From an uncultured Dehalococcoidales bacterium (GTDB lineage Bacteria > Chloroflexota > Dehalococcoidia > Dehalococcoidales > BS750m-G39), in contig CAZQXA010000001.1 of the NCBI GenBank assembly GCA_964597155.1, positions 1-33,128 of the forward strand: a stretch of 33,128 bases of DNA, in the 5' to 3' direction. Of the stretch, positions 16,705 to 32,702 are shown piece by piece (position 1 is the first letter of the stretch; every line of letters starts with the position of its first letter). Under the pieces are notes generated by a model. It was not told where the DNA came from. It searched no databases and saw only the letters and a program-made list of their open reading frames with translations. The translations under genes were made by a program, and so were the position numbers.

Positions 16705-16795
16705 GTCCTTCTCCTTCTGGGTCTCGCTAGCGGCCCAGAGCATGCCATCAGGATAGCCCTATTATGCCGCCCTTTTAAAGCCTGCTTTTAGTAAG

Positions 16796-18151
16796 CTATT
16801 TGTATACCTTGCCATACTCCATTGCGGCATCAACCATTGCCTTTACATTTTCCGCCTTGACTTCGTCAAAGAAGGCCCCATTGCTCACGATAAAACCGCC
16901 GCCCTTGGCGCAGGTATCTATCAGATTCTTAACGTAGTCCTTCACCTGCTGGGTCGTGCCCAGCTTCAACAGGTCGGAGGGCACGTTGCCGAACATGCAG
17001 GCAACCTTGCCCAGCGTTTTCTTGGCTTTAGCCATATCGCTCTGGTCGATCATCCATAGGGTCTTGCCCTTGGGTAGGTCGCAGACAACCTCCATACGCG
17101 TGTTCCAATGCCCCTCAGCCGCTGGCATTGGTACGACACCCTCAGCAATCAAACCCATCATGACCTTCCTAAAGGTAGGCCAGTAGAACTTCTTGAACTG
17201 CTCATCGGAGAGGAAGCCATCGGCACCTTTGTGCAGAGGCATGAATATTATGGGGTGTCCGGCCATCAAGGCGGTGCCTACCCCCATCTTAATCATGAGC
17301 GGCGTTAATCTCTCCATGGCTTCAAGGAGCTTATCCGGACAGCGGTACATATCCACCATTACCCCTCTGGTTCCTCTCAAGGTATCGCCAACTACATCAA
17401 AGGGCGCCTTGGTAAATCCGGCGGCTATTATGGGGAAGCCGGCGGCGGTTACCTCGGCACTGAAGGCACCCATGGCCATTCCCCATTTCAGGGCTTCGGC
17501 GCCGGCCTCAAAGAGGGCCTTATAGGTGGCTTGAACAGGGGGCAGACCAAAGGGTATGAAATTACCGGCAACGCCGTACATCTCAAGTATGCCAGTGAGA
17601 GCCGGAAGCATCCGGAAACCATCTAGCTTACCGAAGACGCGCGGCAGATAGGTATTGCTAAAGAAATTCGACGGGTCGTCAATCAAGGCATCGTATTCGC
17701 CAGCGGTCATGTATTCGCCTTCGTTGGCTTGGTAGGAGCGCTCCGGGGCAACCCCATGACCGGGCCAGGAATACAGCTTATAGTCAAGGATTTCAAAGAA
17801 CTTCCCCGGGCCGGGCACAGCCGCGCCAAGGTTCCCATCCGGGGCAAAGTCCAGGACGAATTTTTTAAATGCCGCGCAGCACTTGTCGTAGTCATACATG
17901 GCTTCTTTGGGGGTTATCCCGGCGTAATAAGCGGGGAAGAAGCTAGGAGCGAGAAAGACTGGCACCCTGTCCGGCAATTTCTTCATCTGGATAGCGTCTT
18001 TTATCCTGGTTATTCTTTCCTTATAAGCCTTCTCGGCATCAGGGCTTAGGTATTTAAGGTCCTTCCCTTGAGGGTCTTTCGGCGAAAGCCACTTCCCAAA
18101 TAGCGCCTCCTGCTTTTCCTCCGCTGTCATCTCTGCCCATTCCTTTGCCAT
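16796..18151 (-). CDS. URO-D-family corrinoid-dependent methyltransferase, paralog A
   Basis: The start is placed at the ATG at 18151 (MAKEW...), 8 nt after GGAGG; the track GTG at 18169 overlaps that RBS. The C-terminal pattern GNVPSDLLKLGTTQQVKDYVKNLIDTC..GGGFIVSNG is typical of URO-D/MtaA-type enzymes. It is adjacent to the corrinoid protein. Confidence 0.7.
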   Translation of the reverse strand: MAKEWAEMTAEEKQEALFGKWLSPKDPQGKDLKYLSPDAEKAYKERITRIKDAIQMKKLPDRVPVFLAPSFFPAYYAGITPKEAMYDYDKCCAAFKKFVLDFAPDGNLGAAVPGPGKFFEILDYKLYSWPGHGVAPERSYQANEGEYMTAGEYDALIDDPSNFFSNTYLPRVFGKLDGFRMLPALTGILEMYGVAGNFIPFGLPPVQATYKALFEAGAEALKWGMAMGAFSAEVTAAGFPIIAAGFTKAPFDVVGDTLRGTRGVMVDMYRCPDKLLEAMERLTPLMIKMGVGTALMAGHPIIFMPLHKGADGFLSDEQFKKFYWPTFRKVMMGLIAEGVVPMPAAEGHWNTRMEVVCDLPKGKTLWMIDQSDMAKAKKTLGKVACMFGNVPSDLLKLGTTQQVKDYVKNLIDTCAKGGGFIVSNGAFFDEVKAENVKAMVDAAMEYGKVYK

Positions 18152-18193
18152 TTTTATTACCTCCTGCACCTTATCTGCTTTTTATAAGGATTG

Positions 18194-18823
18194 TCACTTA
18201 ACGCCTATCCATTTTTTGGCTAGTGTTACTCCGGCCATGGCGTCTTGACCGAAGGCATCGGCGCCGGTATACTTCCTTACCTCTTCGGTAATCTGCCCGC
18301 CGCCAATCATGACCTTAACCTTGTCTCTTAAGCCGGCAGCCTTCATGGCTTCTATAGTCTCTTTCATGGAGTCAAAAGCCAGGGTAAGAAAGCCGCTCAA
18401 GCCGACAACGGGGGCGCCGCTTTCCTTTATCTTGTCAACAAACTTCTGCGGCGGCACATCCACGCCGAGGTCATAGACCTCAAAGCCGTTGACATCGAGC
18501 ATAAAGACGACAATATCCTTGCCGATGTCATGTATATCGCCGGCAACGGTGCCAAAGACAACCTTGCCCAGCCGCTTGGTCGCCACCTCCTTGGCCATCT
18601 TCGGCTTAACCAGCTCGGTTACCGCCTTCAGTATTTCTCCGGAGTAAACCAGGTCAGGTATGAAATACTCGCTATTGGCAAAGCGCTTGCCCACGATTTC
18701 CATACCCTTCCGGGCATCATCCAAAATCTTTACTGGCTCTTCACCGGCACTCAGCCTGTCTTTAACAATCTTAAGAGCCTCTGCTTCCTTCAAATTAGCT
18801 AATGTGTTTACCAAGTCAGCCAT
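18194..18823 (-). CDS. Corrinoid (cobalamin-binding) methyl-carrier protein
   Basis: It carries the DxHxxG cobalamin-binding motif (GDIHDIGKDIV), an N-terminal helical cap, and a Rossmann-like B12-binding domain. RBS AAGGAGGT is present. Confidence 0.85.
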   Translation of the reverse strand: MADLVNTLANLKEAEALKIVKDRLSAGEEPVKILDDARKGMEIVGKRFANSEYFIPDLVYSGEILKAVTELVKPKMAKEVATKRLGKVVFGTVAGDIHDIGKDIVVFMLDVNGFEVYDLGVDVPPQKFVDKIKESGAPVVGLSGFLTLAFDSMKETIEAMKAAGLRDKVKVMIGGGQITEEVRKYTGADAFGQDAMAGVTLAKKWIGVK

Positions 18824-19004: not shown

Positions 19005-19709
19005 CTAAAGCCCCAAATAGGCCTTCTTTATCATCTCCTTTTTTAGAAGGTCCTTGCACTTCCCCTCCATGGCAATCCGCCCGTTTTCCATCACGTATGC
19101 CCGGTCAGATATCTCCAGGGTATTGCGCACATTCTGCTCAATGAGCAAGACGGTGAGTCCCTGCTCGCGCAGGGACTTTACGACCTGGAATACCTCCAGT
19201 AGCAGCCTCGGGGCCAGACCATATGAAGGCTCATCGAACATGCACATTCTTGGCCTGGTCATTAGACCCCGACCCATAGCCAGCATTTGCTGTTCGCCGC
19301 CGCTTAATGTCCTGGCTAATTGGCTCGCTCTTTCTTTTAATATCGGGAAAAGCTGATAAACCCGCTTCAGGGTCTCTTTCTTCTGTTTCCAGGCTCCAGA
19401 GGTATAGGCACCCATCTCCAGGTTTTCACGCACTGTCATTTCGGGGAAAAGCCTTCTACCCTCGGGGATATGGGAAAGTCCCAGTCCCACAATGCGGTAA
19501 GGCTCCAGCCCGTCAATTCTCTTGCCCAGGAACTCAACGCTACCCGAAGCCGGGCGTAGCACACCGGATACAGTATTAAGCAGTGTCGTTTTGCCGGCTC
19601 CATTGGCGCCAATCAGGGCCACAATCTCTGCCTCATTGATATTCAAAGAAAGATCCCATAAGGCTTGAGACTTGCCGTAAAAAGTATTTATATTTTTAAT
19701 TTTCAGCAT
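19005..19709 (-). CDS. livF: Branched-chain-amino-acid-type ABC transporter ATP-binding protein (LivF-like)
   Basis: Walker A GANGAGKTT, ABC signature LSGGEQQ and Walker B MCMFDEPS are present. The start is set at the ATG at 19709 (MLKIKNI); the track extension to 19790 overlaps livG. Confidence 0.85.
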   Translation of the reverse strand: MLKIKNINTFYGKSQALWDLSLNINEAEIVALIGANGAGKTTLLNTVSGVLRPASGSVEFLGKRIDGLEPYRIVGLGLSHIPEGRRLFPEMTVRENLEMGAYTSGAWKQKKETLKRVYQLFPILKERASQLARTLSGGEQQMLAMGRGLMTRPRMCMFDEPSYGLAPRLLLEVFQVVKSLREQGLTVLLIEQNVRNTLEISDRAYVMENGRIAMEGKCKDLLKKEMIKKAYLGL

Positions 19710-19713
19710 AAGC

Positions 19714-20433
19714 CTACTCTCCCAGGTATACCTCAATAACCTTCTTGCTGGTAGCAATCTCCTTTGGCGTTCCTTCAGCAATCTTCTCACCGTGGTGGAG
19801 CACTATAATTCGGTCGCATACCCCCATAATTGCCTTCATAACGTGCTCAATCATGAAAATGGTAACCCCCCTCCTCCGAATCTTGGTTACCAACTCCATA
19901 GCCTCGGCTGTCTCCGTGGAATTTAGACCTGCCATCAGCTCATCAAGCATTAATAGTTTCGCCCTGGTGGCTAGGGCTCTAGCCACCTCAACTCGCTTCT
20001 GGTTAACCAGGGTCAAGCCCCCAGCCGGTATATCTTTAAGTGCTGACAAGCCAACGAACTCTAATAACTCCGTAGCTTCCCCAGCCGCCTTCGCTCCCGA
20101 GATACCGGTTGGCGTCCCGAATAGCGAGCCCAACAATACATTCTGAAAGGCTGGTATATTGGCGAAAACCCTAACCTCTTGAAAAGTCCTGGCCACTCCC
20201 ATCTGGCAAATTTTGTGCGGCTTTAAGCCGCTAATCTTTTCGCCCTTAAATTTTATTACTCCTGGTTTAGGGGCCAAAGCCCCCGATATCAGATTAAACA
20301 GCGTCGTTTTACCAGCGCCATTGGGACCAATCAGACCAACGACTTCACCCTGGGCCACGTTAAAGTCTACATTTGATACTGCGGCTAACCCGCCAAAATA
20401 CTTGGTAACCCCTTCACCTTCAAGTATTTTCAT
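19714..20433 (-). CDS. livG: Branched-chain-amino-acid-type ABC transporter ATP-binding protein (LivG-like)
   Basis: Walker A GPNGAGKTT and Walker B LLMLDEL are present, with LivG-like length and operon position. Confidence 0.85.
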   Translation of the reverse strand: MKILEGEGVTKYFGGLAAVSNVDFNVAQGEVVGLIGPNGAGKTTLFNLISGALAPKPGVIKFKGEKISGLKPHKICQMGVARTFQEVRVFANIPAFQNVLLGSLFGTPTGISGAKAAGEATELLEFVGLSALKDIPAGGLTLVNQKRVEVARALATRAKLLMLDELMAGLNSTETAEAMELVTKIRRRGVTIFMIEHVMKAIMGVCDRIIVLHHGEKIAEGTPKEIATSKKVIEVYLGE

Positions 20434-21370
20434 GTTGCCCTCCCGGCCTTCGTTTCAAAAACTTTTGTATCAAGCCAACCAGTCCATTGGGCATGAATAA
20501 TATAGCGGCTACTAAGACGACGCCGAAAATGAGCATATATAATTCGGAAAACGTGGTTATTAATTTCTCCTGTAGGTAGGCAAAAATGACGGCGCCGATT
20601 ACCGGACCGTAAAGCTCTCCCATGCCGCCAAAGATAGCCATTAAGACCGGCAAAAAAGAAAAGAGCGCATTAAAGGCAATGTATGGGTCAATATATATCC
20701 ATCTTGTGGCCATGGTTGCCCCGGCGGCACCCATAAAGAAGGCGCTTACGGCAAAGGTGATAATCTTCACCATAGTTACATTAACGCCGGCATGAGCCGC
20801 GGCCTCCTCATTGGCACCGATGCTCTGCAGGGCCAAGCCAAATTTAGAGCGTCTGATAAAGTAGGCGGTAATCATTAATACCACAAAAACGCCGAGCATG
20901 GCGTAATAAATAATGTTGTAATCTATAGGAACAACGAATCGGCCACGTATACCGCTTATATGAAGCTCCCAGAACACGAGAAGTTGCGTGATGAGTACAA
21001 CGAGGCCGAAAGTGAAGATAGCAAAATATATGCCCCTCAGCCTCAGGGTTAAGACGCCAACAAGAAGGGCAACTACGGAACTGGCTAGCCCGCCAACAAG
21101 AATAAAGACAGGCAGGGGGACATATTCCCCCAGCAAGGCAGCAGCATACAAGCCAATGCCGAAAAATGCCGCCGTAGCCAGTGACATGTAACCGGAAGGA
21201 CCTGAAAACATAGCCCAGCTCACTGAAAGGACAGCGTACATAAGGAGGGAGGTCATCAATATGGGGGTATAACCTTTGGCATAGAGGGGCAAAGTAGCTA
21301 ACAGGACTAGGAATAAACCAAGTAGCCCCATTAAAGACGACTTTTTAGAGGTAATCCTTACAATATCCAT
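20420..21370 (-). CDS. livM: ABC transporter permease (LivM-like)
   Basis: Polytopic membrane protein. It overlaps the livG start by 14 nt and follows the livH-like gene. Confidence 0.8.
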   Translation of the reverse strand: MDIVRITSKKSSLMGLLGLFLVLLATLPLYAKGYTPILMTSLLMYAVLSVSWAMFSGPSGYMSLATAAFFGIGLYAAALLGEYVPLPVFILVGGLASSVVALLVGVLTLRLRGIYFAIFTFGLVVLITQLLVFWELHISGIRGRFVVPIDYNIIYYAMLGVFVVLMITAYFIRRSKFGLALQSIGANEEAAAHAGVNVTMVKIITFAVSAFFMGAAGATMATRWIYIDPYIAFNALFSFLPVLMAIFGGMGELYGPVIGAVIFAYLQEKLITTFSELYMLIFGVVLVAAILFMPNGLVGLIQKFLKRRPGGQHENT

Positions 21371-21374
21371 TTCT

Positions 21375-22247
21375 CTACTTTCCCATAATGCCTTTTGGTC
21401 TTACCAGTAGCAGGAGTATGAAGATAAAATAAAAGGCAGCCACGGTTAAGCTCGGCTCAATATAGGTTACCACGCTGCCAATAATACCCAGTATAAAACC
21501 ACCGATAAAACTGCCGGGAATACTCCCCAAACCACCAAGGACAACCACAATGACGGCAATTATTGTATAATTCAGACCCATAGTCGCTGTAATAGGGAAG
21601 CACATGCTTATCAGTACACCGGCAAAACCGGCCATTAAAGTACCAAGGCCAAAGCATAAGGCCAGCATATTGTTGATGTTTACCCCCATGAGTCCCGCCG
21701 TCGCCGGGTCTTGAGCCGCCGCCCTGATGGCTTTGCCCAGACGGGTACGGGCTAGAAAGATATAGAAGGCTACACCTATGCCTACGGCAAAGCCAAGGGT
21801 TACCAGACGATTGGCTTGAAATACCGCTCCCCACAAATTGACCGGAGAAGCTAAATAGGTGTAGCCCCTTGAGACACCACCCCACACTATTATGGCTATA
21901 TTCTGAATGATGTAGAGGAGGCCAAAGGTGGCTAAGAGGGAACTGCCCTCAAAGGCGCCTACTGATGGTGCCGACTTATAGAGGCTCCGGAACATAGTCC
22001 GGTGAAGGAAATAACCTATTATGAATATAATAGGACCAACAATAACCAGAGAAATCAGCGGGTTAATGCCGAATGAGGTGTACAGCATCCAGGTGGCAAA
22101 AGCGCCGACCATAATAAATTCACCGTGAGAGATGTTCAGCACCCGGGCGACGCCGTACTGCAGGCTCAAGCCCATAGCAATCAGGGCATAGATGCCGCCC
22201 ATCAATAGCCCGCCGATTACTATATCCAGGAAAGACACAAAACTCAT
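21375..22247 (-). CDS. livH: ABC transporter permease (LivH-like)
   Basis: Polytopic membrane protein with a LivH-like N-terminus (GLLMGGIYALIAMGLSL). The start at ATG 22247 is preferred over the TTG at 22271. Neither has a strong SD. Confidence 0.75.
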   Translation of the reverse strand: MSFVSFLDIVIGGLLMGGIYALIAMGLSLQYGVARVLNISHGEFIMVGAFATWMLYTSFGINPLISLVIVGPIIFIIGYFLHRTMFRSLYKSAPSVGAFEGSSLLATFGLLYIIQNIAIIVWGGVSRGYTYLASPVNLWGAVFQANRLVTLGFAVGIGVAFYIFLARTRLGKAIRAAAQDPATAGLMGVNINNMLALCFGLGTLMAGFAGVLISMCFPITATMGLNYTIIAVIVVVLGGLGSIPGSFIGGFILGIIGSVVTYIEPSLTVAAFYFIFILLLLVRPKGIMGK

Positions 22248-22279
22248 AGTAACAACTTTCTGACCTGGCAATCAAGGGC

Positions 22280-22368
22280 GCAGGCTGTCTAAAGGCGCAG
22301 GAAAAGTCCTGGGAGAAAATAGCCACCTTTTAGAAGGTGTTATTTTCTTTACCCTTTAGACAGCCTGC
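22280..22368 (-). promoter_or_regulatory. Large nested stem-loop in the binding-protein/permease intergenic region
   Basis: A perfect 16-bp inverted repeat, GCAGGCTGTCTAAAGG (22280-22295) and CCTTTAGACAGCCTGC (22353-22368), encloses an inner CACCTT/AAGGTG hairpin (22324-22339). On the minus strand the inner hairpin is followed by a T-rich run. Confidence 0.6.
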
Positions 22369-22427
22369 TTACTATTTTCGACTCTAACTCCTAAACTCGA
22401 GTATCTCTCTTTAAAAAACTCTAATGC

Positions 22428-23783
22428 TTATGGTGCTGGCCACACTGGCTTGGGATAGAGAATAACATCTGTGGTCATCTTATCCGCCGGGCCTATAACC
22501 TCATATATGCCGCTTTGCCATTGGCCAACCTGCCCGGGTGCACATTCTCTCGCCATAAGTCCGCCACCTTCACCACCAGCGGTCATATCAAACCAGGTAT
22601 CCCCCAGACACGTATCGAAGTGACTGGAAGCCAGTATGTCTCTTATCTCTTCTTGGTCAAGGCAACCTGCCTCAATGATAGCCTGCTCCAGACATTCCAG
22701 CGCCGCCCAGTAGAAGCACTGTCCCCACCAATCAAGGAAGGCTTCTTCGTCACCAAAGACGGCTAGTCCGGCAGCACCCTTATATTCGACAATCAAATCA
22801 GCGAGATCGTTCAATGCAGGAGAAGATTCCCGGTTCCAGGCACCAAAACCCATTACCCCCTCCATCGCTGCTGGATTAGTTCCGCCTGCGGTAAATATAT
22901 CATAGAAGAAGTGGAAGTTACCTCCAGGTCCCAGTACCATGGCATTGGGATTATAGCCAATCGCCATTGACTGACCGACAACCGACATGGTCGTCGGGGG
23001 ATAGACAAAAGCGCAAAAGGCATCGGCTCCGCTCGTCTGGGCCTGCTTCAATAATAGCTCTACGTCCGTAGTGCCGGGCGGAACAGCCTCACCCATAACT
23101 ACACTAATGCCCGCCAAGGTAAATTCGCTGAGAGAGGTATGGTAATACTCAACGCCATGGAGGTCATTGATGTAGATTATGGCTACCGTCTCCACGCCCA
23201 GGTCAACAAAAATGTCAGTCAGGGTCGGTATCTGGTAGTAGTCAGCGTAATTCAAGACGCCAAAGACATAGGGCAGTTCAGGTAGCATAGCGGTGAGGGT
23301 CGTACAACCACCCTCAGCTCCCAGGTATACATAGCCATAGTTATTGGCTAGAGGAGCGGAGGCATAGAGGAAGGCGGTTGAACAGTTAGGAAACAGGATG
23401 TCAACCTCGTCATCCAAAATCAGCTGTTCAATCAGCCTCGTTGACGTGCCCAGGTCACTGGTATCATCATATACGATGTACCTTATAGGAAAGCTCTTGT
23501 CATAATCCGCAAGATATAGGCCGCCCGCGGCGTTGATTTCAGAAACCCAAATTTCCATCATTGGCCCAAAGGCGTAGTCTCCAATATCTTTTAGTGGGCC
23601 GGAGATAGGTCTGGCCGCGCCAATAAGGATTTCAGTTCTGGTATCATAGTCGTCGGGTCGGGTGACTGTTGGTGCGGTTGTCGGCGGTGTGGTCGTTACT
23701 TCCCCTTCTCCTTCGCAGGAGATGGCAACCAGACTGAAGACCATCACCAAAGCCAACGAAACAAACAATAACCTTTTCTTCAC
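22428..23783 (-). CDS. ABC transporter substrate-binding protein (type 1 periplasmic-binding fold, Liv/aromatic-acid-binding family), probable lipoprotein
   Basis: GTG start with RBS AAAGGAGA. A signal peptide ends in a lipobox-like AISC, followed by the Thr/Pro-rich linker TTTPPTTAPTVT. It is the first gene of the liv-like operon. Confidence 0.75.
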   Translation of the reverse strand: MKKRLLFVSLALVMVFSLVAISCEGEGEVTTTPPTTAPTVTRPDDYDTRTEILIGAARPISGPLKDIGDYAFGPMMEIWVSEINAAGGLYLADYDKSFPIRYIVYDDTSDLGTSTRLIEQLILDDEVDILFPNCSTAFLYASAPLANNYGYVYLGAEGGCTTLTAMLPELPYVFGVLNYADYYQIPTLTDIFVDLGVETVAIIYINDLHGVEYYHTSLSEFTLAGISVVMGEAVPPGTTDVELLLKQAQTSGADAFCAFVYPPTTMSVVGQSMAIGYNPNAMVLGPGGNFHFFYDIFTAGGTNPAAMEGVMGFGAWNRESSPALNDLADLIVEYKGAAGLAVFGDEEAFLDWWGQCFYWAALECLEQAIIEAGCLDQEEIRDILASSHFDTCLGDTWFDMTAGGEGGGLMARECAPGQVGQWQSGIYEVIGPADKMTTDVILYPKPVWPAP

Positions 23784-24112: not shown

Positions 24113-25450
24113 ATGGAAAAGAAATGGCAGGAGTTAACCCCGGATGAAAAGCAGGAGGCACTTTTTGCCAAGTGCCTTTCCGCCGAGGGCATAGAGTTTG
24201 CCAGCCCCCAGGCCGAGAAGGCGTACAAAGAGAGAATAACCAGAATAAAAGATGCCATTCAACTGAAGAAACTGCCGGACAGGGTGCCGGTACTGCCCAT
24301 CATCAGTTTTTTCCCTGCTTATTATGCCGGGTTTACTCCTCAAGAGGTCATGTATGACTACGAAAAACTAGTCAAGGCATTCAAAAAATTCACCCTGGAC
24401 TTTGAGCCGGATCTGGATACCGGCGCCGGTACCGCTGGTGCCGGAAGAATCTTTGATATCCTTGACTATAAGTTATATGCCTGGCCCGGCCATGGGGTCT
24501 CGCCCAACCATTCCTATCAGTGCCTTGAAGGCGAATACATGACCGCCGATGAATATGATGCCTTGATTCAGGACCCCTCTTATTTCTTCACCACCACCTA
24601 CTTCCCGCGCGTCTTCGGCAAGCTGGAAGCCTTCAAGATGCTGCCCAATTTTTCCAGCGTCCAGGAGATTGTTTTCGTCGGCCTTAATGTGATACCCTTC
24701 GGCCTGCCCGATGTTCAGGCCGCCTACAAGACCCTCTTTGAAGCCGGGGCTGAAGCCCTGAAATGGGCGGAGGTCCTTGGTGCCTTCGGTAAGGAAATGG
24801 CATCACTGGGCTTTCCCAGCTTCTTCGGCGGCTTCAGCAAGGTGCCCTTCGACGTGCTTGGCGATACCTTAAGAGGCACCAGAGGGATAATGCTTGATAT
24901 GTACCGCCAGCCCGATAAGCTCCTCCAAGCCCTGGATGCCATCACGCCGATGATGATTAATATGGGGATAGCGGCGGTAAAGGCAAGCGGCAACCCCGGC
25001 GTGCTTATCCCGCTACACAAAGGGGCTGACGGCTTCCTCTCCGATGAGCAGTTCAAGACCTTCTACTGGCCCTACTTCAGAAGACTACTCATCGGTTTAA
25101 TTGATGAGGGCTGCGTGCCCTTTTCCTTCGTTGAGGGAGGCTATAACACGCGCCTGGAGATTATCCGGGACATACCCAAGGGTAAGACGGTGTGGGCTTT
25201 CGACCAGACCGATATGGCTAAGGCTAAGGAAATAATGGGCGGTGTTGCCTGCATCGCCGGCAATATGCCCTCCGATTTGTTAAACGTAGGCACCCCGCAG
25301 CAGGTGAAAGACTACGCCAAGAAACTCATTGATACCTGCGGTAAAGGCGGCGGTTATATTATGTCAAATGGGGTTGCCGCCGATGATGTCAAGCCGGAAA
25401 ACCTCAAGGCCATGATTGGCTTCACCAAGGAGTACGGCGTATACAAATAG
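24113..25450 (+). CDS. URO-D-family corrinoid-dependent methyltransferase, paralog B
   Basis: It is collinear with paralog A over its full length, roughly two-thirds identical by eye. The RBS/start context is the same (TGCAGGAGGTAAT-AAAAATGG). Confidence 0.7.
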   Translation: MEKKWQELTPDEKQEALFAKCLSAEGIEFASPQAEKAYKERITRIKDAIQLKKLPDRVPVLPIISFFPAYYAGFTPQEVMYDYEKLVKAFKKFTLDFEPDLDTGAGTAGAGRIFDILDYKLYAWPGHGVSPNHSYQCLEGEYMTADEYDALIQDPSYFFTTTYFPRVFGKLEAFKMLPNFSSVQEIVFVGLNVIPFGLPDVQAAYKTLFEAGAEALKWAEVLGAFGKEMASLGFPSFFGGFSKVPFDVLGDTLRGTRGIMLDMYRQPDKLLQALDAITPMMINMGIAAVKASGNPGVLIPLHKGADGFLSDEQFKTFYWPYFRRLLIGLIDEGCVPFSFVEGGYNTRLEIIRDIPKGKTVWAFDQTDMAKAKEIMGGVACIAGNMPSDLLNVGTPQQVKDYAKKLIDTCGKGGGYIMSNGVAADDVKPENLKAMIGFTKEYGVYK

Positions 25451-25457
25451 AAGTGGC

Positions 25458-26996
25458 TTACTGTTTTGGCGATGCCTTCTCCGGCTTCTTTTGATATATG
25501 GAGGTATGCACCCCGGAGATGTCGGCTCCCACATAGCTAAATCCTGTATTCTCGCCGACACCGTTGGGGTCAAAGGCTTCTTTTAGCCTGCCAAACCATA
25601 CATGGTAATTAGATACCCGTTTGCCGATGACATCAATAGGCAAGACACCCATTGCTGGCACGGCGAAGCAGCCATCTAAAGCCCTTTGCCCCACCTTCGT
25701 CAGCCACTCCTGTACGGCTTTGGACGACTGCTCGTCGTAGGGATTATATCGGCAGAATATCTCGGTGTGCCCCAGATGCCCCCCTTCCTCCCCCCAGCCG
25801 AATTGCTGCCCGTCGTCAGCTATGACCAGCCCCTTCTTTATCAGTTCTCTCTTGAGTACGGCTGCTTCCTCCAGCCACCTCACATGGTTATCGTATCTCT
25901 GGCCCTGCACCATCATCGAAGAGAACGCCCCACCAGCACGGAAGGTCTCTCTGATAGAGGCACTAACCCGTGTGCACTGGAACAACAGGGTTGATTCAAC
26001 AGCGGGGTCTTCGACCGTTTTCAAGGACTTGCCGCCAGTTTCCTTTATAATCTGCTCCAGTACCTTCTTCCGGTATTCAAAGTCTTCGGGGAAGTTGCCG
26101 GCGATGATGACCATGAAGCCGGGCCCCTGCACCTCCTTGGTGAACCGCTCCAGAGTCTCAAAGTCTTCTTCGTTACTGGTCGTTATATTGGAAGATACCA
26201 TCGAGGGACAAAAGCCCATGAGCTCGAAGGCTATTTCACTTTCACCAATCTTAAGCTCGGCTTCAACCAGTTTCTCGATTGAAGGGAAGCTGAAATAGCG
26301 CACCATCATGTTCATCTCTGATGGTTTCTGGCTAAGGGTGTACCGTGGTGATGCTCCTTCCAGGGGAAATACCGGTGGCCCCGGCCAGTGATATACCTTG
26401 GTCGCCTGCTTGGTAATGACACCCCCGCCCCGATATACGCCTCTTAAAGACGGACCCGGCCCGTCGCCGCAGAACCACTCATCCGAAGCCCCCAGCGTCC
26501 CCAGCCTGATTATCTCCCCTTCATCAGTTACCCATTCTGTGGCCAGGTCGTTTCGGTCTCCGGTGCTGGTGGTCATCCCCATATGGCCATGACCGGACAT
26601 GGCCAGGGCAGTGCAGGTGGAGCCTGCCCCCTTTACGTTACAAATCATGCCCCTCTTGAACAGCTCAGCCATCAGCTCTGCCGAAATTACGTAAGGCTCG
26701 ACCACGGCATACATGTTTTTCTCGTTGATTTCGATGATGCGGTTCATCCTTCGGAGGTCCAAAAATATGAAATCGTAGGCCGGAGGCATAAATGACCAGC
26801 CCGTACTCTGCGCTTTGTATGGTATCTTGTGTTTGTTACACAGCCTGACAGTCGCGGCAACCTCTTCCGTGTTCCCGGGAAGAACCACGGTTACATCCTG
26901 GGAACGATAGGCGTCTTTTATTGCCGGGTCATCGGAAATATTCTCCGCCCCGACCACATCTTCGAATTCCTTATATACCTCTCTGCTTATAGCCAT
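25458..26996 (-). CDS. Divergent FAD-binding PCMH/VAO-GlcD-superfamily subunit (third gene of the flavoprotein/Fe-S operon)
   Basis: The N-terminal pattern ...VVLPGNTEEVAATVRLCNKHKIPYKAQSTGWSF...FLDLRRMNRIIEINEKNMYAVVEPYV matches the FAD_binding_4 layout, but the usual GGG(T/H)S loop is replaced. RBS AAAGGGGG is present. Confidence 0.55.
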   Translation of the reverse strand: MAISREVYKEFEDVVGAENISDDPAIKDAYRSQDVTVVLPGNTEEVAATVRLCNKHKIPYKAQSTGWSFMPPAYDFIFLDLRRMNRIIEINEKNMYAVVEPYVISAELMAELFKRGMICNVKGAGSTCTALAMSGHGHMGMTTSTGDRNDLATEWVTDEGEIIRLGTLGASDEWFCGDGPGPSLRGVYRGGGVITKQATKVYHWPGPPVFPLEGASPRYTLSQKPSEMNMMVRYFSFPSIEKLVEAELKIGESEIAFELMGFCPSMVSSNITTSNEEDFETLERFTKEVQGPGFMVIIAGNFPEDFEYRKKVLEQIIKETGGKSLKTVEDPAVESTLLFQCTRVSASIRETFRAGGAFSSMMVQGQRYDNHVRWLEEAAVLKRELIKKGLVIADDGQQFGWGEEGGHLGHTEIFCRYNPYDEQSSKAVQEWLTKVGQRALDGCFAVPAMGVLPIDVIGKRVSNYHVWFGRLKEAFDPNGVGENTGFSYVGADISGVHTSIYQKKPEKASPKQ

Positions 26997-27014
26997 GATT
27001 TGCTACCCCCTTTC

Positions 27015-28283
27015 CTAGATTGCCTTCTCTACTATTTCAGCGATATCGTAAACCTTTAAGTTTCTACCGCTTGCCTTGATAACTTCATTGAAGTTCTTCT
27101 CGCACCAGGGGCAGGCGGTGACGATTGCCTCCGCCCCGGTAGACTCGGCTTCTTCGAGTCTCTCATTAGCCGTCCACCTGGCGAACTCGGGGTTCGATTC
27201 GTTGACGCCGCCGCCAGCGCCGCAGCACCAGGCGTATTCCTTAATCCTTTCCATTTCAAAAAGCTTTACCCCGGGAATACTCAATAGCACCTCCCGCGGC
27301 GGCGCGTAGACGCCATAAGTGCCCCGGCGGTATACCTTGGGAGGGTCAAAAACAAACTTGTAGCCCGGAATCTTTTTCCCTTGCCAGTGTAGCCAGGGCT
27401 CACCCAGTCTGCCCAGATAGCAAGGGTCATGATAGGTGACTGTCAGGTTCACTTCCTTGTTCAGCTTGAGTTTGCCTTCCTTAATCAGGCGGTCAATATA
27501 TTCGCTGATATGCAGCACCTCCAGGTCACCTTTAAGATTGTACTTGTCGTAGAGCACCTTGAAGGCTTGATAGCCATCGGCACAGCCTGTGACCAGCGTC
27601 TTGACGCCGGCTTCTTTTAGCATGTCCATGTTCTTTTTAGCCTGCCGAAGGAAATCATCCTTATAGCCCATCTGGTAAGCCCGGCCGCCGCAACAGGACT
27701 CGTTTTCGTAGCCGATACCAAAGTCAACCCCGGCTTTCTTTAATATCTTGGCCGTGGCCATAGCCAGCTTCTGGTAGTCCTCGTCAAAACTGGTCAGGCA
27801 GCCGACATGGTAATAGACCGCCACCTTTTCCTTGGTGGCATCTTTAATGCCCAGCCCCTCGGCCCAGGTGGCGCGCTTTCCCTTGGCCCCGGCCACCATG
27901 GTGCCCTGCTTGCGCAGGCTATTAATTACTTTATCCAGGGCGGGACTGGCATGTCCCTGCTCCACGCACCTGATTCTGAACTCATATATCGGCTCCAGCA
28001 CTTCCATGTCCATGGCATACTTGCAGGAGATATCACAGCCGCCGCACATCTGGCAGTTATAAACTATATCAAGGAGCTTATCGGTATATTTAAATCCGCT
28101 ACTCAACATTTCTTTGGCGATAAGCAGTCTGCCACTGCCAGAGTAGGCGTGGAAATTGTATCTGGCTATGCTGGGACAGGCGTATGAATGCTCAACCCCC
28201 TTTATCATTTGCAGGGGTATATGTTTGCAGGCCGAACAGCGGCAGCACATCTCAACATCACCGCGGTAATCTTCTATAGCCAT
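27015..28283 (-). CDS. Fe-S oxidoreductase subunit with 2x[4Fe-4S] ferredoxin motifs and two CCG domains (GlcF/HdrD/LutA-like)
   Basis: CxxCxxC...CP (CCRCSACKH...ACPS) and CQMCGGCDISC are present, plus two CCG motifs (ESCCGGRAY and AWCCGAGGG) with CPWC. RBS GAGAGGAG is present. Confidence 0.8.
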   Translation of the reverse strand: MAIEDYRGDVEMCCRCSACKHIPLQMIKGVEHSYACPSIARYNFHAYSGSGRLLIAKEMLSSGFKYTDKLLDIVYNCQMCGGCDISCKYAMDMEVLEPIYEFRIRCVEQGHASPALDKVINSLRKQGTMVAGAKGKRATWAEGLGIKDATKEKVAVYYHVGCLTSFDEDYQKLAMATAKILKKAGVDFGIGYENESCCGGRAYQMGYKDDFLRQAKKNMDMLKEAGVKTLVTGCADGYQAFKVLYDKYNLKGDLEVLHISEYIDRLIKEGKLKLNKEVNLTVTYHDPCYLGRLGEPWLHWQGKKIPGYKFVFDPPKVYRRGTYGVYAPPREVLLSIPGVKLFEMERIKEYAWCCGAGGGVNESNPEFARWTANERLEEAESTGAEAIVTACPWCEKNFNEVIKASGRNLKVYDIAEIVEKAI

Positions 28284-28322
28284 CTAAAGCTCCTCTCGTA
28301 AATTTATTCAGGCGACTCTTTT

Positions 28323-29789
28323 CTAAAAGCACAGTTTCCCCGGGTTCATAACATGGTTGGGGTCTAATATCGTCTTAACCCTGGTCAAAGCGGCAACGTA
28401 AGCGGCATCTCTATTAATAATCATCCGGGCACTTTTACCATAAGGCCTTGAGAAGAAGGCACCCGTGGCCATTAAGGCGTTGATGGCGCCAGCCGATAAC
28501 TCCTCAACTCGCTCCAGCTCACCCGCATCTTGGGGGTCATAAAAAAGGTTGAACTCGCAGTGGCAGTTGGCACCCTGCACTATCGGCTGGAGATAAACAC
28601 CCATGTCTAAAGCAGGATAGCCGGAGTTATTAGCCACATCCTGCATGACGCCGATTTGGCCTTGGAGCTTATCATAGGTGGTTATAAAGAATATATCGTG
28701 GCAGGCCCCTTTATAGCCAAGCTTCCAATAGGGCTCAGCGGAGGGCCTTTTTACCTTTTTCAACATCTCAATCGCTGAAACCCTACCGACGGCTTTAACC
28801 GCTTCCACCCCTATCCGCTTGGTTATATCGGTGATGCCCTTAACTTGAGAACTCACCCGCTCTTCAGGAAAATAATTATAGCCGGCTAGGTTAAAGAAAA
28901 GCACCCAGGGTGGCAGGGTGTCCTTAATATCCCGGTAATCAGAGGGGAATTTCTGGGCCATGATAGCCGCCAGGGTAGAGTTATTCAAGACAAAGCACTC
29001 GTTAACCAGCCTCAGCCTCACCAGCCAGTGAACCAGCTCAAACAACTTGTCCAGTTCCGAGGAGCCGACCAGGAAAGGCTCTTCAAGTTTGGGGAGTATT
29101 TCACAGCGCAGCGACGCCCAGGTGACAATGCCCATCGTCCCTTGTGCTCCCTGAATAAGCCGGTACCAGGCAGCCGGGCCCGGCCCATATGGCGTCTTTT
29201 GTGCGCCGCCGGCGGCCCACTGCTCCTCGATGGTACCCGGGCCAGCCGCTTGCCCGGTCCGGAACATGTCGCCGGTGCCAAAGACCACCTCTACACAGGC
29301 CAAGGGGTCTGATATATCCCAGTGATACTTGGGCATTATTGCCGGCTCCCTCTCCAGCATACTGCCGATAACAGTCTTTGACTCCCGTGGCAGCAAAGGC
29401 ATATTGAGCCTCAAGCCTTCTTTTTCTACCGCCGGTATTAGTTCGCCGAAGGTTACCCCCGGCTCAACCATGGCCACCCGGTGAGCCCGGTCAACGCGGA
29501 TAATCTTTTTCATGCCGCTTAAATCGACAACCACCGCCCCCTCGATGCCGGGAACGGTATCACCGCGAAAATGGGGGGAGCCCGAGCTTACCGGTACCAG
29601 CGGGGTGAGCTTATCATTAGCCCACTTAACCAGCTTCTGCACTTCAGCGGCATCCTTGGGCTTGACCACGCATCTGGGTCTGGTCGGCGTAACGAAACTA
29701 AAATCCCTGGAGTATTCTTCCAGGGTTTCTTCATCATCCAGGACATTCTTAGCGCCGAAGATTTCTTTCAAAGTTTCATTGCCAGCCAT
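28323..29789 (-). CDS. FAD-binding PCMH/VAO-GlcD-superfamily oxidoreductase subunit (first gene of the operon)
   Basis: The start is set at the ATG at 29789 with RBS AAAGGAGC; the track start at 29837 lacks one. The FAD_binding_4-like layout is CVVKPKDAAEVQKLVKWANDKLTPLVPVSSGSPHF...VVDLSGMKKIIRVDRAHRVAMVEPGVTFGEL. Confidence 0.65.
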   Translation of the reverse strand: MAGNETLKEIFGAKNVLDDEETLEEYSRDFSFVTPTRPRCVVKPKDAAEVQKLVKWANDKLTPLVPVSSGSPHFRGDTVPGIEGAVVVDLSGMKKIIRVDRAHRVAMVEPGVTFGELIPAVEKEGLRLNMPLLPRESKTVIGSMLEREPAIMPKYHWDISDPLACVEVVFGTGDMFRTGQAAGPGTIEEQWAAGGAQKTPYGPGPAAWYRLIQGAQGTMGIVTWASLRCEILPKLEEPFLVGSSELDKLFELVHWLVRLRLVNECFVLNNSTLAAIMAQKFPSDYRDIKDTLPPWVLFFNLAGYNYFPEERVSSQVKGITDITKRIGVEAVKAVGRVSAIEMLKKVKRPSAEPYWKLGYKGACHDIFFITTYDKLQGQIGVMQDVANNSGYPALDMGVYLQPIVQGANCHCEFNLFYDPQDAGELERVEELSAGAINALMATGAFFSRPYGKSARMIINRDAAYVAALTRVKTILDPNHVMNPGKLCF

Positions 29790-29845
29790 AATTTTTGCTC
29801 CTTTGACCTGATTACTTTTAAGCGGGTGGGGCGACAAACTGCCCT

Positions 29846-29890: not shown

Positions 29891-29919
29891 TTGACAGACT
29901 CATAGCGATAACTTATTAT
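29891..29919 (+). promoter_or_regulatory. Sigma70-type promoter of cupin gene 1
   Basis: TTGACA (29891-29896), 17-nt spacer, TATTAT (29914-29919). RBS AAAGGAGGAA follows downstream. Confidence 0.65.
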
Positions 29920-29962
29920 GGTCAAGATTTATAGCAACCTTGGTAAAAGGAGGAAATAAAAA

Positions 29963-30451
29963 ATGGCGGAAACAAAATACGGGAAGTATATCATCAGAGA
30001 ACCCCTAGAAAAAGGAATGGCACCAGGGCTACACATATGCGCTGAAGAGGGTTGTGAGGGAGCCAAGTTTGCCAACTTTCCGGTTGAAGTCCAACTACTC
30101 TGCATCACCCAACCGCTCGAATTTCCCCATCCGCCCCACACCCACGATGTCGACGAACTCTTTTTCATCTTCGGCAGTAACCCCTTAAATTACTTCGAGT
30201 TCGACGCCGAAATCGAGATATCCTTGGGCGAAGAAAGAGAAAAACATATAATTAACAGCACATCCATTGTCTACATCCCTAAGGGATTGGTACATGCTCC
30301 GATTGCCATCAAGAAGGTGAATAAACCCATTCAGTGGATGCATATTCTCTTTACTCCTAAATACAAAATGGCAGTAGGTGACGTTTCGCTTCACCCTAAG
30401 CACCCTCGCCAGCACTATTCGCCAGAGGAAATAAAAAAGCTAAAGGGTTAG
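29963..30451 (+). CDS. Cupin-fold metalloprotein, paralog 1
   Basis: Cupin motif 1 is HTHDVDELFFIFG (HxHx3E) and motif 2 is PKGLVH (PxGxxH). The N-terminus MAETKYGKY is shared with the second cupin. Confidence 0.65.
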   Translation: MAETKYGKYIIREPLEKGMAPGLHICAEEGCEGAKFANFPVEVQLLCITQPLEFPHPPHTHDVDELFFIFGSNPLNYFEFDAEIEISLGEEREKHIINSTSIVYIPKGLVHAPIAIKKVNKPIQWMHILFTPKYKMAVGDVSLHPKHPRQHYSPEEIKKLKG

Positions 30452-30523
30452 CCGGTAAGGGTAATCACTACCAAGACAAGCAGTCTATCGATTATACATT
30501 TCGGGGACTTATAACTTGCGTCT

Positions 30524-31249
30524 CTATTTTTGATATTCCTGCCTTAAGCCGTCAACCACCTTCTGAAAATGCACCCGTTTCTGGTCCGCACCCAGGGTGT
30601 ATATTGGCAGAACCCACTCCATTTCCTGAAGATTTTCTACTATCATAGGCAGCAGGTCGTGGGGGATGGAGATAAGCATCAAGCCCTCGGGCAATACCCC
30701 CCTTGATTTCATGCCGGCACCCAGGCCGCTTATGGTATAGTTCAATTCGCCGCTGATGAAGGGATAAATGTATAGCCAGGCGCACATCACAACTGGCGTG
30801 CTCCGGGTGGTTATCATCTTGCCGGTGGAATAGCAAAGCGCCCGCAGCAAAATCTCCGCCTGGTTCACCGCAGCCGTAATAATCAATACATCCGGGTCAA
30901 AGGTTAGCTCGTCTAAGGGAGAGAAGGCAACATACCTGACGGTACCCTTGCCCAGCATGGGAAGGTAATGATAGATTCGGCGGTTAGCCCTTGCCTCCTT
31001 AAACACGCCGTCCTTGGCTCCCACCTGCCCGCTGGCGAAAACGGGGTCGAAATCGGCCATGCCCAGTAGCATCGGCTCTATGCAGGGAAAGTTTTCCTGT
31101 GATGCGTAAAAGGCGCTGCCTTTGTGGGCCTCGCCAAGCATCTCGCAAAAAGCCAGCTCCTTGATGCCATCCGGTTTATTGAGCAAGAACTTAACGCCTA
31201 CCGGCTTTCTTTCAAAATTGAACTTGTTAAAAATTGATAAGTTGCTCAT
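30524..31249 (-). CDS. DUF169-family protein, paralog 1
   Basis: The N-terminus FNFERKPVGVKF...FCEM...FY...C and the ~240-aa length are typical of DUF169 (COG2043). RBS AAGGAGGT is present. Confidence 0.65.
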   Translation of the reverse strand: MSNLSIFNKFNFERKPVGVKFLLNKPDGIKELAFCEMLGEAHKGSAFYASQENFPCIEPMLLGMADFDPVFASGQVGAKDGVFKEARANRRIYHYLPMLGKGTVRYVAFSPLDELTFDPDVLIITAAVNQAEILLRALCYSTGKMITTRSTPVVMCAWLYIYPFISGELNYTISGLGAGMKSRGVLPEGLMLISIPHDLLPMIVENLQEMEWVLPIYTLGADQKRVHFQKVVDGLRQEYQK

Positions 31250-31267
31250 ATCTACCTCCTTGCCATT

Positions 31268-32020
31268 CTATTCCCGGTAAGAATATGGTTGCTCTAACTC
31301 CTTTGCCATGTCTTCACTTCTTTTCTTGACCTCTTGGATAAATCCCTCTCTGCCTAAATTGAACCAGTAAGGCTCCCACTCCATATCCTTCAAATTCTCA
31401 AGCAAACCGGGGATTAGGTCGAAGGGTACAGTTATAATAATCAGACCTTCGGGCAGCACCTGTCTGGCTTTCATGCTGTAACCGAGACCGCTGACAGTGC
31501 AATTTAACTCGCCGTTGAGGTATGGATGAGCGTACATCCAGGCACAGGCTAAACACGTCGTTCCTTTAAAGGACCACATTTTCCCATCCGAATAGCTGCT
31601 GGCTCTCAGGATAATCTCCGCCTGAGTCGTGTTGGCTGTAATAATCAATAGGTCCGGGTCAGAGGTAAGCTGGTCTACAGAAGAGTGAGTGATGTATTTA
31701 ACAGAATCCTTCGGTAATATTGGAACGTAATCATAGATTCTGCGGTTGGCACCCGGAGTTTTAAACATGGCAAACATTGGACCCAATTGCCCGCTGTACA
31801 TCATTGGTGGAAAATCTAACATGCCAACTACATGTTCTCCACACTGTACGTTCTCTTTTGTGGCGTAGAAGGGTTTGCTGGTTTGCGCCTCTTTAAACAT
31901 CTCGCAAAGCCCTAAACTTTTATCTAGCTGCTCAATTCCTGCTGGTTTACTGAGTGAGTACTTGACGCCTACCGGCTTTCTTTCAAAATTGAATTTGTCA
32001 AATATGGAGTAGTCGCGCAT
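31268..32020 (-). CDS. DUF169-family protein, paralog 2
   Basis: It is collinear with paralog 1, about half identical by eye. RBS AAGGGGG is present and the gene has its own promoter. Confidence 0.65.
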   Translation of the reverse strand: MRDYSIFDKFNFERKPVGVKYSLSKPAGIEQLDKSLGLCEMFKEAQTSKPFYATKENVQCGEHVVGMLDFPPMMYSGQLGPMFAMFKTPGANRRIYDYVPILPKDSVKYITHSSVDQLTSDPDLLIITANTTQAEIILRASSYSDGKMWSFKGTTCLACAWMYAHPYLNGELNCTVSGLGYSMKARQVLPEGLIIITVPFDLIPGLLENLKDMEWEPYWFNLGREGFIQEVKKRSEDMAKELEQPYSYRE

Positions 32021-32050
32021 CTTAAACCCCCTTCTTTAGTTTCAAGAATG

Positions 32051-32079
32051 ATTGTAGCAATTTGCCTTGCCACATGCAA
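32051..32079 (-). promoter_or_regulatory. Sigma70-type promoter of the DUF169 pair
   Basis: On the minus strand: TTGCAT (32079-32074), 17-nt spacer, TACAAT (32056-32051). Confidence 0.6.
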
Positions 32080-32105
32080 CGAGATAACGTTAACACCGTA
32101 GTCTG

Positions 32106-32134
32106 TTGCAATGTATTGGTAAATGGCATAGAAT
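32106..32134 (+). promoter_or_regulatory. Sigma70-type promoter of cupin gene 2
   Basis: TTGCAA (32106-32111), 17-nt spacer, TAGAAT (32129-32134). It sits back-to-back with the DUF169 promoter, with 26 nt between the two -35 boxes. Confidence 0.6.
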
Positions 32135-32159
32135 TTGCTTTAAAAAAGGAGGAGAACCA

Positions 32160-32702
32160 ATGGCGGAAACAAAATATGGAAAGTACTTTATATCGGGGCC
32201 CATTGCGGGGAGAGAAGCTACCAAGGTTATCGCCGACTTAAGCGGCGACCTAATTCAGGGGAGTAATCGCTATATGATTAACTGGGTATTCCCTTCCCCG
32301 GCGGAACTTTTCGGGGTGGACTCGTGGGACCAAATCTCCCACGGCCCACACATACACAAAAGTGCCGAAATCCTAATGCACATCGGAACCAATCCCGATG
32401 ACCCATATGACCTGGGCGGGGAAGTTGAGCTTTGTATGGGCCCGGAGATGGAGAAGCATATCATCACCAAGTCCACCATTACCTATATACCGCCGAATTT
32501 CGTACACTGCCCCTGGACGATTAAGAGGGTGGACAGGCCCTTTATAATGGTACAGGTCAACCAAGAACCCAGGCACACCGAAAAATCCCTAAAAGAGCTG
32601 GTGCCAGCCAAAGATATGGATAGGATGATGTTCATCGACGAAGGCTACGAGGGTAAGGAGGCAGTCTGGCAGTTCCCCAAAGGCTCAAAGCGAGGCAAGT
32701 AG
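32160..32702 (+). CDS. Cupin-fold metalloprotein, paralog 2
   Basis: The start is set at the ATG at 32160 after RBS AAGGAGGAG; the track TTG start at 32106 is the promoter -35 box. Cupin motifs are HIHKSAEILMHIG (HxHx3E) and PPNFVH. Confidence 0.65.
   Translation: MAETKYGKYFISGPIAGREATKVIADLSGDLIQGSNRYMINWVFPSPAELFGVDSWDQISHGPHIHKSAEILMHIGTNPDDPYDLGGEVELCMGPEMEKHIITKSTITYIPPNFVHCPWTIKRVDRPFIMVQVNQEPRHTEKSLKELVPAKDMDRMMFIDEGYEGKEAVWQFPKGSKRGK

Follow-up and report, generated by a model that had tools for sequence, protein, structure and literature searches.

Four genes near the end of a 33,128-nt contig from an uncultured Dehalococcoidales bacterium (CAZQXA010000001.1, assembly GCA_964597155.1; the whole contig is called the window below) encode two small cupins, CupA and CupB, and between them a tandem pair of DUF169 proteins. 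With a probability of roughly one half, these cupins and DUF169 proteins are facultative accessory genes of a Dehalococcoidales catabolic island for an anaerobic phenolic or methoxy-aromatic pathway, and not the halves of an obligate two-component enzyme as the first-pass annotation had proposed. The core of the island would be a pair of flavoprotein dehydrogenases of the vanillyl-alcohol oxidase/p-cresol methylhydroxylase (VAO/PCMH) type wired to an HdrD-like CCG protein, together with a UroD-type corrinoid methyltransferase.

The gene set and its layout

On the forward strand, cupA (29963-30451) encodes a 162-aa single-domain predicted metal cupin and cupB (32160-32702) a 180-aa paralogue of it. 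DUF169-b (30524-31249; 241 aa) and DUF169-a (31268-32020; 250 aa), both PF02596 proteins, are on the reverse strand, giving the order cupA> <DUF169-b <DUF169-a cupB>. The cupins do flank a tandem DUF169 pair, as first described; all four open reading frames (ORFs) are intact and conserved, with orthologues up to 86-88% identical. The start of cupB is placed at the ATG at 32160, from which the protein begins MAETKYGKY, rather than at the TTG at 32106 of the ORF list. The convergent genes cupA and DUF169-b are 72 bp apart, DUF169-a is 18 bp upstream of DUF169-b, and DUF169-a and cupB diverge from a 139-bp gap; no unit in the window has a cupin and a DUF169 gene on one strand. The window is the entire contig and ends beyond cupB, where related loci continue with genes for a tripartite ATP-independent periplasmic (TRAP) transporter or SnoaL-like proteins.

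A conserved island around cupA

Taking one genome per species, a scan for cupA yielded 70 loci: 15 from Dehalococcoid(al)es, 40 from Acidobacteriota, 14 from Desulfobacterota-type genomes, and one from Acidimicrobiia, as judged from record titles. ORFs were called and clustered, cluster representatives annotated, and the 8 kb around cupA searched with the DUF169 profile. Calling followed a longest-ORF rule, so that some starts are over-extended; the cupA genes of two loci (L036 and L055) are masked by this rule and were placed from tblastn coordinates. Related genomes are non-independent samples.

DUF169 lies within 8 kb of cupA in 10 of the 70 loci, and these are very unevenly distributed: 9/15 in Dehalococcoid(al)es, 1/14 in the Desulfobacterota-type genomes (L092), 0/40 in Acidobacteriota, and 0/1 in Acidimicrobiia. 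Six Dehalococcoid(al)es loci lack it: two are at contig ends with no room for it, three have a more distant cupin (65-67% identity), and one (L027) has room. Where cupA is at least 76% identical and is followed by ≥1 kb of sequence, DUF169 adjoins cupA in nine of ten Dehalococcoid(al)es loci and flavoprotein genes are nearby in all ten (12/15 for Dehalococcoid(al)es overall).

The island shared by these loci can be written (HypE HypA CobW) UroD> <FAD <CCG <FAD (<SnoaL-like) cupA> <DUF169 (<DctM <DctQ <DctP). In this arrangement (type I) the single DUF169 gene is an orthologue of DUF169-b (69% identity), convergent on cupA with a 4-bp overlap. L036 and L055 have a second order, <FAD <CCG <FAD <DUF169-b <DUF169-a cupA>, with the DUF169 pair 137-139 bp upstream of the operon and, in L055, a cupB orthologue immediately following cupA. 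A third order is that of the window. Rearrangement has thus not separated these genes.

Of all its neighbors, cupA is most stably associated with the operon for the twin flavoproteins and the CCG protein, close to which there is a UroD methyltransferase gene. FAD/CCG genes accompany cupA in 16 of the 70 loci, including three of the 40 from Acidobacteriota and one that is deltaproteobacterial. In two of the former (L048, L054) cupA is co-directional with FAD-CCG-FAD and ~245 bp downstream of it; in the third (L051) and in the deltaproteobacterial locus (L094) it is near the same three genes. The link between cupA and the flavoproteins therefore crosses phyla, while that with DUF169 mostly does not. 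That the module stands beside a flavoprotein/Fe-S operon and corrinoid methyltransferase genes had already been noted; Pfam and structure searches bear out the families, and the neighborhood is conserved across Dehalococcoidales loci.

Cupins and DUF169 as neighbors elsewhere

Five non-Dehalococcoid genomes with cupA orthologues have two to nine DUF169 matches each, 32 genes in total. A cupin of the family is within 1 kb of three of these (G004:C55, G004:C63, and G005:C209), with ≤0.51 expected (P ~0.015), and within 6 kb of six, with 2.7 expected (P 0.058); the P values are Poisson, the expectation of 0.51 is an upper bound, and neither contig ends nor the clustered occurrence of cupin copies enters into these estimates. 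All three pairs within 1 kb are co-directional. Their DUF169 proteins are 43-52% identical to one another and their cupins 29-33% alike. Since these DUF169 proteins are only ~25% identical to those in the window, the association is seen in two DUF169 subfamilies. For the second subfamily, that of Desulfobacterota, a cupin is within 1.5 kb in five of 30 loci from 41 related genomes. The order cupA> <cupX <DUF169 is common to a Dehalococcoidales locus (L030) and one from Thermodesulfobacteriota (L128).

The association is far from consistent. DUF169 orthologues at ≥90% identity keep a cupin neighbor in two of five cases, and on the three large contigs where both could be placed, 133 kb, 280 kb, or 2.2 Mb separate the cupA orthologue from the closest DUF169 gene. 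No DUF169 domain was found in the best 149 representatives of the cupin family, nor any cupin-DUF169 fusion among these and four long DUF169 frames. A complex prediction for DUF169-b with CupA scored 0.00 against a mark of 0.32, a score that is no evidence either way.

Cupin-DUF169 adjacency is thus facultative: it is few-fold to several-fold above chance and involves ~10-17% of DUF169 loci. Being several-fold enriched and found with two distant DUF169 subfamilies, it is probably no accident; being limited to ~10-17% of loci, lost between close orthologues, and absent at cupA in Acidobacteriota, it does not suggest subunits of one enzyme. The proposal that the two families co-occur is accordingly half sustained: they are enriched within 1 kb of each other, in a second phylum, but with DUF169 at 10 of 70 cupA loci they are inconsistent companions.

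The cupins

CupA and CupB are paralogues, 33% identical over 141 residues. Cupins typically bind metal through two motifs, HxH(x)3-4E and PxGxxH, and the versions quoted earlier are all present in the translations: HTHDVDE and PKGLVH in CupA, HIHKSAE and PPNFVH in CupB, where asparagine replaces the glycine of the second motif. The putative ligands in CupA are H59, H61, E65, and H111, the second motif comprising P106, G108, and H111. An alignment of 12 diverse family members has H59, H61, H111, G71, E83, E93, P106, P113, and P122 (CupA numbering) invariant, while E65 is replaced by glutamine in two. Both proteins do begin MAETKYGKY; this start had been taken as a feature of the pair, but the N-terminal KYGKY segment is widely kept among diverse members and is thus a family hallmark. 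At the DNA level the 5′ ends of cupA and cupB match at 25 of 27 nt (29962-29988 and 32159-32185), and for the DUF169 pair the 5′ identity is 79% across 95 nt (31155-31249 and 31926-32020); in both families the 5′ ends are far more alike than the remaining gene parts, which may reflect N-terminal constraint or local gene conversion.

No Pfam cupin model reaches its cut-off with either protein. Cupin_2 (PF07883) gives 13.4 bits (E 0.066) with CupA, below the gathering threshold of 27.2, and does not match CupB at E≤0.1; NCBIfam has no match for either. An AlphaFold2 (AF2) model of CupA, built on 23 orthologues (mean predicted local distance difference test score, pLDDT, 81.7), has a beta-barrel cupin fold, and Foldseek finds 90 Protein Data Bank (PDB) matches to it at E≤0.001, nearly all cupin-named among the matches listed. 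By modeled fold and two-motif site CupA is a member of the cupin superfamily, with a predicted metal.

The best structural matches to the model (E 5.6e-6 to 1.5e-5) are MarH (6j4b) and the non-heme-iron cupin epimerase/lyase of 7EU6 and 7EQK, small single-domain cupins of secondary metabolism with the same fold and His/His/Glu…His ligand pattern. The likeness is distant: template modeling (TM) scores are 0.57-0.66 to the target and 0.45-0.48 to the query, with a root-mean-square deviation of 4.3-6.2 and 22-25% identity, and the profile match to 7eqk has an E of 0.026. Unlike these proteins, CupA is ~40-50 residues longer and has the conserved KYGKY segment, and its orthologue group carries extra invariant His and Cys residues (H24, C26, C31, H144, and H147). 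These are missing from CupB and other paralogues and, going by the alignment, may form a second, structural metal site. None of the MarH types needs oxygenase action, which suits an anaerobe. A dioxygenase role was considered for the cupins and rejected, as gene content points to an anaerobic host: the genome encodes tungsten aldehyde oxidoreductases, corrinoid proteins, and radical SAM enzymes, and related loci have hydrogenase maturation genes.

The family is large. Searched against 1.84 billion representatives, a profile from the 12 diverse members matches 1,658 clusters (50% identity) at E≤1e-3 and 1,109 at E≤1e-10; two-domain bicupins make up 108 of the best 149 representatives. For CupA there are 232 homologues, with identities up to 87%, nearly all named “hypothetical” and from metagenome-assembled genomes labelled Dehalococcoidia, Acidobacteriota, and Desulfobacteraceae; CupB has 318, up to 88% identical. 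An even sampling of 150 other Dehalococcoidia genomes gave no CupB orthologue at E≤1e-25; as the protein database holds orthologues up to 88% identical, this is a sampling effect. The nearest clusters to CupA in a protein atlas are unnamed Chloroflexota families.

The source genome (1.26 Mb in 170 contigs, 90.7% complete) has 13 cupin domain matches in at least 10 ORFs, and the five other genomes with cupA orthologues have 14-52 each, 145 in all. Copies reach 52 in a 4.0 Mb Thermodesulfobacteriota genome and 37 in a Desulfatiglans genome, and there are tandem arrays of up to ~7 domains within 3.3 kb (G004:C181:75453-78740). Paralogues in the source genome are spread over loci L020-L025 and L011 (contigs C7, C80, C82, C94, C111, C153, and C70), next to short-chain dehydrogenases/reductases, an aminotransferase, and regulators. 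One, a 287-aa bicupin, is between panC (pantoate-beta-alanine ligase) and panB (ketopantoate hydroxymethyltransferase) on one strand (L020:9097-12172).

The DUF169 proteins

Both middle genes clearly belong, by profile match, to DUF169 (PF02596, COG2043), an uncharacterized family. The matches are full-length, at 110.5 bits for DUF169-b (E 1.4e-31; residues 9-206, profile positions 5-209 of 209) and 101.2 bits for DUF169-a (E 9.6e-29), against a cut-off of 27. The two are 49% identical, and DUF169-a has 1199 homologues, up to 88% identical. Three cysteines, C39, C60, and C159 of DUF169-a (C35, C56, and C156 of DUF169-b), are invariant in 20 aligned sequences that include paralogues at 21% identity, and again in a second alignment of 23; this Cys triad is a criterion derived from the present alignments rather than a published family definition.

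The AF2 model of DUF169-a is confident (pLDDT 91.4) but resembles little. A PDB sequence search gave no match at E≤1, Foldseek a best E of 0.15 (HypE), and a VIA-wide comparison a best Z of 4.7, where thiolase/ketosynthase chains are numerous in the range Z 3.2-4.7. These scores are too weak to call a shared fold. With PF02596 left out, the protein-atlas clusters closest to DUF169 are GGGtGRT (PF14057; 0.90-0.91), a lead only. The published passages found on DUF169 or COG2043 are passing mentions: a fitness hit in Desulfovibrio G20, a neighbor of hgcA in Nitrospina, and a neighbor of SepRS in archaea.

Of 41 Desulfobacterota-type genomes searched, 37 have DUF169, as do three of 14 controls, which included methanogens and Bacteroides. 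The source genome has six DUF169 genes, including the pair in the window. A second tandem pair (L018:3929-5470, contig C2) is between rnc (RNase III) and tuf (EF-Tu), with no catabolic genes nearby, and a single gene is between phoU and gatB. A third paralogue (L017:3-3874, contig C64) is directly upstream of genes for a B12-binding corrinoid protein and two UroD-type proteins, on the same strand, and divergent from a ThiS-like gene and an aldehyde:ferredoxin oxidoreductase gene. The recurrence of tandem pairs may point to a heterodimer.

All four of the long DUF169 frames checked in the Desulfobacterota-type genomes have an N-terminal DUF169 domain fused to CoaE, dephospho-CoA kinase (L130:2710-4176, L131:2517-3947, L133:2863-4359, and L134:3665-5230); a gene for a PHP-domain protein adjoins three of them. 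With these fusions and the bicupin between panC and panB, both families touch coenzyme A biosynthesis genes.

Flavoprotein, methyltransferase, and transport genes

The context operon of the window (25458-29837, reverse strand) has two genes for VAO/PCMH-type flavin adenine dinucleotide (FAD) proteins (25458-26996 and 28323-29837; Pfam FAD_binding_4, PF01565, E 9e-22 and 4e-20) on either side of one for an HdrD-like CCG/4Fe-4S protein (27015-28283; Pfam CCG and Fer4_8). The best solved relatives of the 504-aa flavoprotein are eugenol oxidase, VAO, and PCMH (E 4e-21 to 2e-17 over ~260-290 residues), with weaker matches to D-lactate/glycolate enzymes (E ~1e-11); by these similarities it is closest to the 4-phenol-oxidizing branch of the VAO/PCMH family. 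Those three enzymes use oxygen or a cytochrome c subunit, whereas the HdrD-like CCG protein of the window stands between two paralogous flavoproteins. A Geobacter PCMH employs two flavoprotein isoforms with Hdr-like partners.

The UroD-superfamily gene at 24113-25450 (forward strand; Pfam URO-D) encodes a corrinoid methyltransferase of the MT I type and is conserved beside the FAD/CCG operon in Dehalococcoidales loci. Its nearest solved relative is CdmB (9rui; E 3.3e-38), the substrate-activating methyltransferase of a corrinoid system, in a superfamily that includes O-demethylases (PMC13222342). The likeness to the CdmBCA chloromethane dehalogenase and to the Mtv, Odm, and Vdm O-demethylases lies in the match of the window's UroD proteins to CdmB and the presence of a B12-binding protein; these systems are described with neither cupins nor DUF169 as components, at least in the main text of PMC13222342, where the word “cupin” is absent. 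A second UroD gene and the B12-binding protein gene (18194-18823) are at 16796-18823, followed by a Liv-type ATP-binding cassette (ABC) importer at 19005-23783. Directly downstream of these UroD and B12-binding genes, a 242-aa ORF (16015-16743, reverse strand) has no Pfam match at E≤0.001. A literature search for O-demethylation, methoxylated-compound, corrinoid, or lignin work on Dehalococcoidia found none.

Promoter-like and ribosome-binding sites

Each unit of the module had been credited with a near-consensus promoter. Upstream of cupA, TTGACA-17-TATTAT (29891-29919, forward strand) does match the consensus at 11 of 12 positions, consensus likeness being all that is claimed for it. The sites upstream of cupB (32106-32134, forward; TTGCAA-17-TAGAAT, 9/12) and DUF169-a (~32052-32080, reverse; TTGCAT-17-TACAAT, 8/12) are weaker, the latter with three of six matches in its first hexamer and below the listing rule of the promoter scan. 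With these scores, and with eight promoter-like sites in the region against 5.1 ± 2.2 in shuffles, “three near-consensus promoters” was an overstatement. To judge from their 18-bp spacing, DUF169-a and DUF169-b are probably one transcription unit, so the four genes make up three units at most. cupA, cupB, and DUF169-b each have a strong ribosome-binding site (AAGGAGG for DUF169-b, separate from that of DUF169-a); that of DUF169-a, also said to be strong, is G-rich. Rfam has no match anywhere in the window at gathering thresholds.

Possible functions

The proposed island would process para-substituted and/or methoxylated phenolics after their import by an ABC or TRAP transporter encoded next to it. 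The flavoproteins might oxidize the substrate side chain and pass electrons to the HdrD-like Fe-S subunit, and the corrinoid methyltransferase might strip methyl groups. The cupins, whose closest counterparts of solved structure (for CupA) are epimerases and not oxygenases, could act on an intermediate with a carbonyl group, as metal-dependent isomerases, tautomerases, or lyases that need no oxygen. DUF169 could use its cysteines in redox chemistry, sulfur chemistry, or the handling of a cofactor. Both families would then have been recruited into the same kind of island without being obligate partners.

This reading starts from gene families, conserved synteny, a cupin fold with its ligand motif, and a Cys triad, all of them observed, and several points weigh against carrying it as far as a pathway. 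The pathway assignment draws on distant similarity, with partial-length matches for the flavoprotein and 22-25% identity between CupA and the MarH types, and to our knowledge neither family has a member of known substrate, metal, or activity. The link between cupA and the flavoproteins holds in just 16 of 70 loci. Beyond the island, the 71 proteins encoded next to 18 DUF169 genes in other phyla are heterogeneous, with no recurrent partner and no CCG protein; they include two aldehyde:ferredoxin oxidoreductases, two gamma-glutamyltranspeptidases, and one B12-radical SAM enzyme. The tight co-directional DUF169-cupin pairs of four loci (L030, L126, L127, and L128) would fit a closer partnership.

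Such a partnership, a dedicated two-component enzyme (a complex or an obligate consecutive pair) with both partners duplicated, now appears improbable. It would account for the excess of cupins within 1 kb of DUF169, for the association in two subfamilies ~25% identical, for the second-subfamily loci with a cupin within 1.5 kb, for the order shared by L030 and L128, and for pairs as tight as those of L030 (a 19-bp gap) and L128 (overlapping ORFs as called). Yet 29 of the 32 DUF169 genes and >95% of the cupin copies in the five genomes are apart, as are four of six DUF169 genes and all cupins outside the window in the source genome itself, although short contigs limit the view there. DUF169 is missing within 8 kb of cupA at all 40 Acidobacteriota loci, with the nearest copies 133 kb to 2.2 Mb away on the three large contigs checked, and three of five close DUF169 orthologues have no cupin neighbor; the two domains are not fused in any of 149 cupin representatives; and in the window the genes are on opposite strands. 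These results tell against the enzyme system first suggested. The opposite extreme, juxtaposition of two multi-copy families in one inherited, lineage-specific arrangement without shared function, is unlikely as well. Copy numbers are high, with 13 cupin domains and six DUF169 genes in 1.26 Mb, and 14-52 cupin domains alongside 2-8 DUF169 genes in the five other genomes; the nine adjacent Dehalococcoid(al)es loci may share one ancestral arrangement; and the 6-kb enrichment is marginal. But the genes stay together through three gene orders, cupins are found beside DUF169 genes of a distant subfamily in another phylum too, and the 1-kb enrichment is several-fold.

DUF169 might instead serve the Fe-S or corrinoid machinery, as redox partner of the HdrD-like CCG protein or as a UroD/corrinoid helper, with the cupins as independent pathway enzymes. 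The co-directional DUF169 pair just upstream of FAD-CCG-FAD in L036 and L055, the source-genome copy directly upstream of a B12-binding protein gene and two UroD genes, and cysteines invariant down to paralogues at 21% identity all agree with this. It is nonetheless doubtful: CCG proteins are missing among the DUF169 neighbors in other phyla, Acidobacteriota have FAD-CCG-FAD clusters without DUF169, other DUF169 genes of the source genome are in housekeeping contexts, and the CoaE fusions indicate yet another partner. A facultative place for both families in the catabolic island remains the preferred reading. A more specific version of it is a long shot: KYGKY cupins and Cys-triad DUF169 proteins as co-evolving modules of an anaerobic pathway, so far undescribed, by which Dehalococcoidales and other anaerobes of sediments would process 4-alkyl- and methoxy-phenols from lignin. 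Twin flavoproteins would feed an HdrD-like subunit with DUF169 as its thiol/disulfide substrate, and the carbonyl product that arises from the quinone methide would go to the cupin for an oxygen-free conversion. If true, this would be the first function both for DUF169 and for a cupin family of >1,000 clusters.

DUF169 is widespread without an assigned function or a solved fold, and the cupin family, which has dozens of copies in uncultured sediment anaerobes, is without Pfam annotation. What had looked like a two-component enzyme is better treated as a facultative association; placement in the island gives testable substrates and partners for both families, and bears on how Dehalococcoidales with very small genomes may live off phenolic and methoxylated organic matter.

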